Source: Escherichia coli (lineage in GTDB: Bacteria > Pseudomonadota > Gammaproteobacteria > Enterobacterales > Enterobacteriaceae). From it: DNA of 64,000 nucleotides. The stretch lies in the NCBI RefSeq assembly GCF_030013205.1, contig NZ_CP122648.1; one strand, written 5' to 3'. The translations under genes and the position numbers were made by a program. This document shows positions 49,165-50,568 of this stretch, in pieces. How positions within the stretch are numbered: the stretch's first letter is position 1; every line of letters starts with the position of its first letter. The notes beneath the pieces were generated by a model, which saw only the letters and a program-made list of their open reading frames with translations, did not search any database and was not told the DNA's origin.

Positions 49165-50568
49165 ATGAATACAGTACGCAGCGAAAAAGATTCGATGGGG
49201 GCGATTGATGTCCCGGCAGATAAGCTGTGGGGCGCACAAACTCAACGCTCGCTGGAGCATTTCCGCATTTCGACGGAGAAAATGCCCACCTCACTGATTC
49301 ATGCGCTGGCGCTAACCAAGCGCGCAGCGGCAAAAGTTAATGAAGATTTAGGCTTGTTGTCTGAAGAGAAAGCGAGCGCCATTCGTCAGGCGGCGGATGA
49401 AGTACTGGCAGGACAGCATAACGATGAATTCCCGCTGGCTATCTGGCAGACCGGCTCCGGCACGCAAAGTAATATGAACATGAACGAAGTGCTGGCTAAC
49501 CGGGCCAGTGAATTACTTGGCGGCGTGCGCGGGATGGAGCGTAAAGTTCATCCTAACGACGACGTGAACAAAAGCCAAAGTTCCAATGATGTCTTTCCGA
49601 CGGCGATGCACGTTGCGGCGCTGCTGGCGCTGCGCAAGCAACTCATTCCGCAGCTTAAATCCCTGACACAGACGCTGAGTGAAAAATCGCGCGCATTTGC
49701 CGATATCGTCAAAATCGGTCGAACCCACTTGCAGGATGCCACGCCGCTAACACTAGGGCAGGAGATTTCCGGCTGGGTAGCGATGCTGGAGCATAATCTC
49801 AAACATATCGAATACAGCCTGCCGCATGTAGCGGAACTGGCTATGGGCGGTACAGCGGTGGGTACTGGACTAAATACCCATCCGGAGTATGCGCGTCGCG
49901 TGGCAGATGAACTGGCAGTCATTACCTGTGCACCGTTTGTTACCGCGCCGAACAAATTTGAAGCGCTGGCGACCTGTGATGCCCTGGTTCAGGCGCACGG
50001 CGCGTTGAAAGGGTTGGCTGCGTCACTGATGAAAATTGCCAATGATGTCCGCTGGCTGGCCTCAGGCCCGCGCTGCGGAATTGGTGAAATCTCAATCCCG
50101 GAAAATGAGCCGGGCAGCTCAATCATGCCGGGGAAAGTGAACCCAACACAGTGTGAGGCATTAACCATGCTCTGCTGTCAGGTGATGGGGAACGACGTGG
50201 CGATCAACATGGGGGGCGCTTCCGGTAACTTTGAACTGAACGTCTTCCGTCCAATGGTGATCCACAATTTCCTGCAATCGGTGCGCTTGCTGGCAGATGG
50301 CATGGAAAGTTTTAACAAACACTGCGCAGTGGGTATTGAACCGAATCGTGAGCGAATCAATCAATTACTCAATGAATCGCTGATGCTGGTGACTGCGCTT
50401 AACACCCACATTGGTTATGACAAAGCCGCCGAGATCGCCAAAAAAGCGCATAAAGAAGGGCTGACCTTAAAAGCTGCGGCCCTTGCGCTGGGGTATCTTA
50501 GCGAAGCCGAGTTTGACAGCTGGGTACGGCCAGAACAGATGGTCGGCAGTATGAAAGCAGGGCGTTAA
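49165..50568 (+). CDS. fumC: fumarate hydratase class II
   Basis: 467-aa ORF with GSSxMPxKxN signature ([10 protein letters not shown]). Confidence 0.95.

Follow-up and report, generated by a model that had tools for sequence, protein, structure and literature searches.

Convergent fumC/tus and ydgC/folM genes of Escherichia coli: two probably ordinary, ancient stop-sharing junctions, with a candidate fumC 3'-end hairpin in the last codons of tus

In this study, the convergent gene pairs fumC/tus and ydgC/folM were investigated in a 64,000-nucleotide stretch of Escherichia coli DNA (the window), and we consider it highly probable that they form two ordinary, ancient stop-sharing junctions. 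In each pair, the stop codons of the two genes share one TTAA tetramer, which can be read directly from the sequence (Table 1). The original prediction had claimed this sharing for both pairs, and its coordinates proved to be exact by the sequence, the program-made list of open reading frames (ORFs) and RefSeq. The same 4-nt overlaps and the same gene names are found in the RefSeq annotation of a matching E. coli genome, identical to the window across the 6-kb query 49000-55000, and in that of K-12, where the two junctions are b1610/b1611 and b1606/b1607. Both pairs consist of tail-to-tail coding genes that share a tetramer from the set TTAA, TTAG, CTAA and CTAG, and therefore belong to the 4-nt convergent overlaps as this class is defined. 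The tus ORF in the program-made list extends over 50565..51506(-), and Tus homologues are of 309 aa with Pfam PF05472. The window itself represents the terminus region of E. coli.

Table 1. Coordinates of the genes, junctions and embedded or published elements discussed in the text (window positions)
Feature	Position	Strand	Details and source
uidB start overlapping uidA stop, ATGA, 4 nt	41671..41674	+	sequence and annotation
fumC, class II fumarate hydratase, 467 aa	49165..50568	+	stop TAA 50566-50568; ORF list, translation, RefSeq
Tetramer TTAA common to fumC and tus stops	50565..50568	.	direct reading
tus, replication terminus site-binding protein, 309 aa	50565..51494	-	stop TAA 50567-50565; ORF list, RefSeq
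fumC-side hairpin, 14-bp stem, 18-nt loop, then GUUUAUAAC	50578..50623	+	10 nt past fumC stop, within tus codons 291-306
Peak of Rho-dependent (bicyclomycin-sensitive) region, fumC read-through, antisense to tus	~50858	+	K-12 1684895(-); PMC7815308
Span of two RNase III-cut dsRNA hot spots in tus	51037..51234	.	~51037-51063 and 51211-51234; PMC7373196 supplementary file 7
TerB, Tus-binding site in tus promoter region	51505..51527	-	reads AATAAGGATGTTGTAACTAAAGT
ydgC, GlpM-family membrane protein, 111 aa	53723..54058	+	stop TAA 54056-54058; ORF list, RefSeq
Tetramer TTAA common to ydgC and folM stops	54055..54058	.	direct reading
folM, dihydromonapterin reductase, 240 aa	54055..54777	-	stop TAA 54057-54055; ORF list, RefSeq
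folM-embedded hairpin, 11 bp, perfect, CUUUCUC tail	54119..54143	+	~60 nt past ydgC stop, in folM codons (EVIDLVDYL)
Peak of Rho-dependent region, ydgC read-through, antisense to folM	~54643	+	K-12 1681110(-); PMC7815308
mdtI start to mdtJ stop, 14-nt overlap	62604..62617	+	sequence and annotation

Two co-directional overlaps in the window, 4 nt between uidA and uidB and 14 nt between mdtJ and mdtI, had also been proposed and are correct by sequence and annotation. Their description as consistent with translational coupling holds as well, as in both cases the downstream gene, read in the same direction, starts within the last bases of the upstream one; the ATGA of uidA/uidB and the mdtI start inside mdtJ represent the classic geometry of coupled operons.

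With reference to published counts, the four-base stop/stop overlap of the form Y-T-A-R is the modal convergent overlap in prokaryotes (PMC2174442), and 4 nt is the sole possibility for a stop/stop overlap of up to 4 nt. Lillo & Krakauer 2007 recorded 1890 convergent overlaps across 58 genomes, and because 1218 of them are of at least 5 nt, approximately 36% are of 4 nt; the same authors counted 58 convergent overlaps in E. coli (PMC2174442). From their numbers, about 21 four-nt convergent pairs are estimated for E. coli, or about 0.28 per 64-kb window, frequencies which rest on these published counts. The Poisson probability of two or more per 64-kb window is about 0.03, and about two such windows are expected genome-wide by chance, so that two overlaps lying 3.5 kb apart are mildly unusual, not remarkable. 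Ten convergent pairs were noticed in the window: two overlap by 4 nt, one (sodC/ydhK) abuts, and seven have spacers of 24-50 nt, each of which contains a GC-rich hairpin of 10-13 bp. The geometry of both junctions is identical to that of prokaryotic 4-nt convergent overlaps in general, the four permitted tetramers are those that occur in the relatives, and no difference in kind was observed at fumC/tus or ydgC/folM. Overlaps of this kind, the most frequent among convergent genes, have been catalogued before, and both junctions are a normal part of the annotated genome of E. coli K-12.

The conservation of the junctions was surveyed in 80 species-level genomes of Enterobacteriaceae, in which tus/fumC was scored in 80 and folM/ydgC in 61. 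The folM/ydgC junction stands at -4 in 58 of the 61 genomes, with the tetramers CTAG (21), TTAG (20), TTAA (16) and CTAA (1). For tus/fumC, the junction is at -4 in 43 of 80 genomes (TTAA 33, TTAG 9, CTAG 1), at -11 in 16, at 0 in 15 and at -14 in one, while spacers are present in four (+10 in two, +35 in one and +55 in one) and the two genes are 3.9 kb apart in the remaining one. Judged by this comparison, both junctions are ancient, and the TTAA palindrome itself has no special role, TTAG, CTAG and CTAA being interchangeable with it in the relatives. A palindrome flanking the TTAA (CTGC...GCAG at ydgC/folM) was also sought in the relatives, and it is not conserved.

A TAA or TAG stop that follows T or C contains a stop codon in reverse complement, and therefore an opposite gene that is in phase ends there, giving an overlap of 4 nt. 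The persistence of such a junction would follow from the two middle bases, which serve both stops, while the outer bases of the tetramer would be free to swap between T and C and between A and G at no cost. Judging from the next in-frame stops, loss of the shared stop would add 21 codons to fumC, 50 to tus, 40 to folM and 3 to ydgC. The comparative survey agrees with this double use of the middle bases, as the overlap geometry stays the same and the tetramer changes between its four permitted forms.

Without a spacer, the transcripts of both genes can terminate only within the opposite gene. The claim that the overlaps leave no room for an intervening terminator is accurate in so far as the spacer is absent, but it overlooks a conserved 14-bp hairpin within the last codons of tus. 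This fumC-side hairpin has a stable GC-rich stem with a folding energy of -26.7 kcal/mol (z = -5.1). Over 79 distinct sequences 90.7% of its cells pair, with compensatory changes at five pairs, a covariation signal that is confounded by shared ancestry and by the strong amino-acid conservation of the Tus C-terminus; values as high were reached in none of 500 shuffles, and pairing in slid controls was limited to 20-44%. Within tus, synonymous diversity is lowest in the stem codons (permutation P = 1e-4), and the constraint is confined to the two arms, as the codons of the 18-nt loop vary freely and those of the tail are weakly constrained. RNAalifold independently predicts the inner 7 bp, and several sequences of Klebsiella/Raoultella break one or two pairs. 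From these alignments, the hairpin is conserved across the family under what appears to be synonymous-site constraint, and we infer that it is a candidate 3'-end structure of fumC, serving as a weak terminator and/or as a block to 3' exonucleases.

Intrinsic terminators have a loop of about 3-8 nt and an adjoining U-rich tract, and the 18-nt loop and the tail GUUUAUAAC of the fumC-side hairpin do not conform to this; with its UUUAUA tail, it is atypical for an efficient intrinsic terminator. A consensus terminator scan of 49000-55200 returned nothing at either junction, nor was this hairpin called. Embedded Rho-independent terminators are a known arrangement, since 23 of the 116 convergently overlapping genes of E. 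coli were predicted by Lillo & Krakauer to have such a terminator (PMC2174442), and 146 of the 165 convergent excludons of ExcludonFinder have terminators inside the transcription unit of the neighbour (PMC12288877). The fumC hairpin differs from them in its loop length, its weak U tract and the lack of a terminator-scan call.

It is also conceivable, with a rather small probability, that the conserved inverted repeat serves the structure of tus mRNA, or a protein-binding palindrome at the DNA level, in which case fumC/tus would have no dedicated 3'-end element. The repeat can pair on either strand, with 77.9% of the hairpin cells pairing in the tus sense; no fumC 3' end is mapped in PMC7815308; and the invariant U-G pair is uninformative on the strand because the amino-acid code dictates it. 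Nevertheless, the fumC-sense strand gives the more stable hairpin in 72 of 79 sequences, and G-U wobbles at the variable stem pairs favour that strand, with about 39 such cells as opposed to 15. Read as tus mRNA, the hairpin is part of the translated ORF and reaches to within 10 nt of the stop, so that ribosomes would be expected to open it, and exonuclease trimming back to it would presumably remove the tus stop. A freely varying 18-nt spacer between the arms is likewise unlike a protein site.

On the ydgC side, the hairpin embedded in folM has a folding energy of -17.0 kcal/mol (z = -5.0), but all 10 of 10 pairs are kept in just three of 61 relatives, and no synonymous-site constraint was detected. 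For lack of such conservation and constraint it was rejected as a family-wide ydgC terminator, as most of its pairing simply follows from the coding of the quasi-palindromic peptide E(V/I)IDL(V/I)DY, and it is possibly a candidate ydgC terminator limited to the strain or species. For the opposite transcripts, no embedded element for the tus or folM ends was found in the partner genes: the last 30 codons of fumC and ydgC show neither reduced synonymous diversity nor a significant fold that could serve tus or folM. Directly beyond the tus and folM stops, the RNA is rich in C and poor in G, and these two transcripts may therefore be terminated early by Rho. An Rfam search of 49000-55000 gave hits at chance level only.

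Published bicyclomycin (BCM) data indicate that Rho acts on the read-through from both pairs, as read-through of fumC into tus and of ydgC into folM rises when Rho is inhibited (PMC7815308). For fumC into tus, upstream/downstream reads are 83/16 without and 36/39 with BCM (Rho score 5.6, p = 5.8e-7), and for ydgC into folM they are 74/17 without and 79/66 with BCM (Rho score 3.6, p = 2.4e-5) (PMC7815308). The Rho regions peak inside tus at about 290 nt from the fumC stop, and inside folM at about 585 nt from that of ydgC (PMC7815308), positions that are coarse to hundreds of nucleotides because the Rho score uses 800-nt windows. Past the fumC stop, the RNA has a ratio of C over G of about 0.7 in its first 60 nt, and one of 1.4-1.7 between +220 and +300 nt. 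No Rho regions are listed in PMC7815308 for tus into fumC or folM into ydgC, probably owing to low expression. Supplementary files 1 and 3 of that study contain no mapped 3' ends of fumC, tus, ydgC or folM, and it reports no Term-seq 3' end near either hairpin (including K-12 16851xx); because no fumC 3' end is called anywhere in it, PMC7815308 is uninformative, not negative, on the fumC hairpin. None of the four genes is named in the supplements of PMC6131387 or PMC12207403.

According to PMC6061677, Rho-dependent transcripts have their ends directly behind stable stem-loops without a U tract, and rut sites follow shortly downstream. The fumC transcript resembles Rho-dependent ones whose 3' end is guarded by a stem-loop (Dar & Sorek 2018), and known cases in which Rho suppresses antisense read-through, in having a stem-loop without a good U tract past its stop, BCM-sensitive termination further downstream in untranslated antisense RNA and, at +220 to +300 nt but not in the first 60 nt, a segment of C over G in between; it differs in that its stem-loop is written into the coding sequence of convergent tus and maintained via synonymous sites. 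The hairpin 10 nt past the fumC stop may be read as a weak intrinsic terminator and/or a stem-loop guarding the mature 3' end. Transcription beyond it is, by the published BCM data, halted by Rho within a few hundred nucleotides of untranslated antisense-tus RNA. Read-through from ydgC is likewise halted by Rho within antisense-folM RNA in the same data.

A different account of the 3' ends holds that head-on collisions of RNA polymerases, placed by a nascent stem-loop, end transcription, the mechanism being neither intrinsic nor Rho-dependent; we regard this as very improbable. A collision-driven bidirectional terminator class was reportedly described by Ju et al. in 2019. Such terminators need a stem-loop and are Rho-independent (Wang et al. 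2022, 10.1101/2022.10.23.513370). The two pairs are indeed convergent and lack a canonical terminator, and a stable stem-loop is present at the fumC/tus boundary as the model requires (10.1101/2022.10.23.513370), but no conserved one is present at the ydgC/folM junction. Neither junction shows the Rho independence of this class, as read-through past both fumC and ydgC is BCM-sensitive (PMC7815308). Moreover, collisions would be rare because tus and ydgC are weakly transcribed, with 4-27 RPM in the sense direction (PMC7373196).

The convergent transcripts had been expected to read into each other, and three published datasets bear this out for both pairs. They are listed among the 165 convergent pairs with overlapping transcription in the 2025 excludome of E. 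coli MG1655 (PMC12288877, Table 1 therein), their antisense regions are BCM-sensitive (PMC7815308), and dsRNA has been captured from them (PMC7373196). RNase III processing of the duplex is evident from p19-captured 21-22-nt hot spots in tus, folM and ydgC (PMC7373196), the hot spots being paired 21-22-nt reads on both strands, whose positions were converted from an older K-12 numbering (+1976) and then to window coordinates. The same source gives 140-683 RPM of p19-captured dsRNA for tus and 37-870 RPM for ydgC, against 18-33 for fumC (PMC7373196). The antisense effect had been put forward as possibly mutual, whereas total RNA looks lopsided, with the more abundant fumC and folM covering the weaker tus and ydgC: antisense and sense RNA are 12-20 and 9-27 RPM for tus, and 3-4 and 76-126 RPM for fumC (PMC7373196). 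The published data show that the overlap yields sense/antisense duplexes which are cut by RNase III mainly over the weaker tus and ydgC.

In tus, the dsRNA hot spots are located farther from the fumC stop than the Rho peak, at a distance of 470-670 nt. Their source could be an internal antisense promoter and not read-through of fumC.

These duplexes raise the reading that the overlaps are functional convergent excludons, in which polymerase collision and RNase III cleavage of the duplex repress the partner and the absence of a spacer has been selected. We consider it unlikely, and equally so its prediction that fumC induction lowers Tus and folM lowers YdgC. The pairs do share with convergent excludons the 3' overlap of transcripts and the RNase III-cut dsRNA over tus, folM and ydgC; their inclusion in the excludome (PMC12288877), dsRNA over tus and ydgC far above that of the neighbours, tus antisense at 46-230% of the tus sense level (PMC7373196), and a tight junction conserved throughout Enterobacteriaceae are in keeping with it, and for the class of excludon pairs in general, co-expression in single cells is less frequent and synteny greater (PMC12288877). 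However, functional excludons are defined by reciprocal regulation, and fumC/tus and ydgC/folM match them in transcript overlap and dsRNA while the overlap appears lopsided. No regulation is needed to account for the conservation, for which the constraint of coding for both genes at the shared stop is sufficient, and the conserved hairpin together with Rho would limit fumC read-through rather than promote it. In rnc mutants, tus sense RNA is not raised (22.0 and 8.6 against 26.6 in the wild type, single samples each; PMC7373196), contrary to the increase that simple repression through RNase III predicts, and no functional link is evident that would connect fumarase with Tus or YdgC with FolM. 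We think that duplex formation at these two ordinary junctions is mostly a tolerated by-product.

Tus represses its own gene through TerB, and both the autoregulation and the position of the site are stated in PMC8707476. It is very unlikely that the fumC-side hairpin is a selected insulator which sets the invasion of tus by fumC transcription and its reach to TerB from the permissive side. The fumC gene is induced by oxidative stress and iron limitation; if the insulator reading were true, antisense read-through under fumC induction would lower tus or strip Tus from TerB, and the replication fork trap would vary in strength with metabolic stress. Modulation of Tus or TerB by fumC read-through would be the more interesting case, if true.

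In summary, the sharing of stops at the two junctions is real, ordinary and already known, and in itself matters little; transcript overlap, Rho-dependent antisense termination and dsRNA at both pairs are likewise already contained in published genome-wide datasets. What the present analysis adds is the conserved fumC-side hairpin, apparently encoded through synonymous sites of tus. Its value is modest, as a worked example of a gene without a spacer that would obtain its 3'-end structure via the synonymous sites of the convergent gene, and it calls for caution when the 3' end of tus is recoded or deleted and in codon-based selection analyses of tus.

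The window lies in the replication-terminus region, and its 6-kb segment 49000-55000, which matches pig isolates of E. coli O139:H1 at 100% identity, is present in 5424 of the 5426 complete genomes of the species. The order fumA, fumC(+), tus(-), rstB(-), rstA(-), ydgC(+), folM(-) follows the RefSeq annotation of one genome identical over this segment and of K-12 MG1655. TerB here reads AATAAGGATGTTGTAACTAAAGT, with G at position 7 where K-12 TerB has T; since TerC and TerG have the same G at the equivalent position, Tus probably tolerates it. Elsewhere, an IS1 copy between blr and ydgJ (about 30690-31468; InsB ORF 30715-31218 and InsA ORF 31137-31412, minus strand) explains 776 extra bases relative to EC556, the strain whose annotation was transferred to the window and which is otherwise collinear there. 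Another small indel probably separates the two near grxD/lhr (about 1100-1600), because the EC556 annotation offset missed stop codons at the window's left end.

Coordinates of the two convergent gene pairs and of TerB in the window
Feature	Coordinates	Strand	Remark
fumC	49165-50568	+	stop TAA 50566-50568
tus	50565-51494	-	stop TAA read 50567 to 50565; ATG at 51494
ydgC	53723-54058	+	stop within shared TTAA 54055-54058
folM	54055-54777	-	stop within shared TTAA 54055-54058
TerB	51505-51527	-	just upstream of tus ATG (51494)

The original prediction that fumC and tus (50565-50568), as well as ydgC and folM (54055-54058), end in a common TTAA was exact to the base in sequence, ORFs and annotation, and both 4-nt overlaps are identical in the K-12 annotation. 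The co-directional overlaps that it listed were also recovered, namely ATGA at 41671-41674 for uidA/uidB and 14 nt at 62604-62617 for mdtJ/mdtI. Between stops of opposing strands, overlaps of 1, 2 or 3 nt are impossible, and the minimum of 4 nt is necessarily Y-T-A-R; a jump at overlap length 4 and the four tetramers have been described by Lillo and Krakauer (PMC2174442). Their 58 genomes held 1890 convergent overlaps, 1218 of them at least 5 nt long, from which we derived a 4-nt share of about 36%. With their 58 convergent overlaps in E. coli, about 21 such pairs are expected in the genome and about 0.28 per 64-kb window. The Poisson probability of at least two per window is about 0.03, so that roughly two such windows are expected genome-wide, and two cases 3.5 kb apart are mildly unusual, no more. 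These overlaps are an ordinary, already catalogued feature.

Ten convergent pairs were counted in the window: two with the 4-nt overlap, one abutting and seven with spacers of 24-50 nt. Every one of the seven spacers harbors a GC-rich hairpin with a perfect stem of 10-13 bp, 80-nt folds there giving -23 to -32 kcal/mol, and no comparable hairpin was found in 80-nt folds of the three tight junctions (-13 to -19 kcal/mol). As had been proposed, there is no terminator between the partners, the spacer being absent and the consensus terminator scan calling none at the junctions. The abutting pair, sodC(+)/ydhK(-) (TAA|TTA at 11117-11122, zero spacer), is a third terminator-less convergent junction, absent from the earlier list; it belongs to the published excludome of convergent pairs with overlapping transcription (PMC12288877), with a Rho region antisense to ydhK at K-12 1723937. 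About 5 kb past the window's right end, bioD(ynfK)(+)/clcB(-) overlap convergently by 48 nt (40183-40230 of reference record L001), a pair also in that excludome as clcB-bidA (PMC12288877). The terminator scan also called a canonical intrinsic terminator at 49029-49052(+), GCCGCCCTTCGGGGCGG followed by seven T and matched on the minus strand as well, which lies 3' of the gene for class I fumarase that precedes fumC (PGAP name fumB in the reference record, fumA by position).

For the conservation analysis, Tus homologues were aligned, 80 species-representative Enterobacteriaceae loci were fetched with 10-kb flanks, and the stops of all four genes were placed by tblastn and in-frame extension. 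Of 61 folM/ydgC loci, 58 had an overlap of 4 nt and one an overlap of 7 nt, the remaining two being truncated matches; the tetramers were CTAG (21), TTAG (20), TTAA (16) and CTAA (1). Among the 80 tus/fumC loci, the genes overlapped by 4 nt in 43, 11 nt in 16 and 14 nt in one, abutted in 15, and were separated by 10 nt in two, 35 nt in one, 55 nt in one and 3.9 kb in one genome. A tus/fumC spacer of true terminator size is practically never seen, and by this survey the tight tail-to-tail layout is as old as Enterobacteriaceae. Only the geometry is conserved; the TTAA palindrome itself varies among relatives. Without the shared stop, the reading frame would run on for another 21 codons in fumC, 50 in tus, 40 in folM and 3 in ydgC. 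The simplest reading of these alignments is a double lock, in which the two middle bases would serve both stops and the outer bases would be free to undergo transitions, and which would explain persistence of the junctions without regulatory function. A functional excludon, with reciprocal regulation within each pair, is possible, but this conservation has the simpler cause.

Where transcription ends was taken from direct RNA-seq with and without the Rho inhibitor bicyclomycin (BCM) (Adams et al. 2021, PMC7815308, supplementary file 2). A Rho region antisense to tus peaks at K-12 1684895(-) (score 5.6, p = 5.8e-7), with upstream/downstream reads of 83/16 without and 36/39 with BCM, and one antisense to folM at 1681110(-) (score 3.6, p = 2.4e-5), with 74/17 and 79/66 (PMC7815308). 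Mapped to the window, the peaks fall at about 50858, 290 nt past the fumC stop, and about 54643, 585 nt past the ydgC stop, positions that are coarse as the score uses 800-nt windows. Regions antisense to ydhK, tqsA and lhr are tabulated for other convergent pairs of the window; antisense Rho termination is therefore general. The same tables list no Rho region for tus into fumC or folM into ydgC, and no Term-seq 3' ends of the four genes.

Duplexes cut by RNase III and captured with p19 (Huang et al. 2020, PMC7373196) gave per-gene dsRNA of 140-683 RPM for tus and 37-870 for ydgC versus 18-33 for fumC and 18-46 for folM. Duplex hot spots fell within tus (about 51037-51063 and 51211-51234), in the body of folM and at its 3' end (the latter at about 54078-54102), and within ydgC. 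Transcripts of both pairs do overlap and yield RNase III substrates. Sense/antisense RPM in total RNA of wild type, rnc-14 and rnc-38 were 26.6/12.3, 22.0/12.5 and 8.6/19.8 for tus, 103/3.9, 126/3.1 and 76/4.3 for fumC, 19.6/3.1, 12.7/2.7 and 11.4/3.0 for folM, and 4.4/3.4, 3.9/2.5 and 6.2/2.0 for ydgC (PMC7373196). With one sample per strain, tus antisense exceeds sense in rnc-38, the reverse of wild type. Total RNA is lopsided, the abundant partner (fumC, folM) covering the weaker (tus, ydgC). The predicted interpretation was correct in outline and needs qualification: the transcripts read into each other, but in total RNA not to a like degree. For an excludon, it counts against reciprocal regulation that tus sense RNA is no higher in the rnc mutants (PMC7373196). 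Collision-driven bidirectional termination does not fit, since that class is described as Rho-independent, whereas these junctions are BCM-sensitive, and the weak partners are transcribed too poorly for frequent encounters.

Folding of the RNA past the fumC stop revealed a 14-bp stem (50578-50591 with 50610-50623) with an 18-nt loop, followed by GUUUAUAAC (-26.7 kcal/mol, z = -5.1), which sits within tus codons 291-306 and forms likewise in K-12. Across 79 distinct aligned sequences, 90.7% of cells hold standard pairs, and compensatory double changes occur at five of the pairs (16 cells); no shuffle out of 500 came up to any observed measure, slid controls paired at only 20-44%, and RNAalifold independently recovered the inner 7 bp. 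Because common descent and conservation of the protein can raise counts of this kind, synonymous variation at each codon was compared with that of the other tus codons for the same amino acid. The stem codons Q292, P295, L303 and H304 were the least variable of all tus Gln, Pro, Leu and His codons, A293 and L305 fell in the lowest 6% and 3%, and loop codons 296-301 and codon 291 varied freely. Diversity as low as that of the stem arose in random codon sets with P = 1e-4, and the two arms were the lowest-scoring windows across the entire tus gene. The fumC sense was more stable in 72 of the 79 (mean -25.4 versus -19.6 kcal/mol in tus sense), the variable pairs being mostly G-U, which pair solely on that strand; a tus-sense role is unlikely because the hairpin would sit there within a translated ORF. 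No Rfam family matches it. From these comparisons we conclude that fumC has a conserved hairpin, putatively its 3'-end structure, encoded in synonymous sites of convergent tus. Efficient intrinsic termination is unlikely, given the length of the loop and the weakness of the U tract. Dar and Sorek (PMC6061677) describe Rho-dependent transcripts trimmed to a stable stem-loop that has no U tract and lies upstream of the rut region. The fumC layout fits that picture, the stem-loop coming first, then C in excess of G at +220 to +300 nt and the Rho peak at about +290. Both Rho and the conserved hairpin hold invasion in check instead of favoring it, a further point against an excludon.

About 60 nt past the ydgC stop, a perfect 11-bp hairpin with a CUUUCUC tail (54119-54143; -17.0 kcal/mol, z = -5.0) was rejected as a conserved ydgC element, as all ten scored pairs are kept in only 3 of 61 relatives and the folM codons beneath it show no synonymous constraint, although it may function in E. 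coli. Over the final 30 codons of fumC and of ydgC, synonymous diversity was not reduced and no fold was significant. Immediately beyond the tus and folM stops, the RNA is C-rich and G-poor (C/G of 1.9 and 2.1 over the first 80 nt), which suggests early Rho action there. Any folM read-through across ydgC would arrive at a 7-bp palindromic hairpin, TCATCAGGTATTCTACTGATGA (53673-53694), located between the divergent genes rstA and ydgC and called on both strands in the terminator scan.

Tus represses its own promoter via TerB (PMC8707476). Read-through from fumC heads to TerB from the side opposite the tus promoter, and Rho normally halts it on the way. The side so met is, going by Ter polarity, presumably the permissive face. 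That fumC read-through might matter for Tus occupancy of TerB is speculation.
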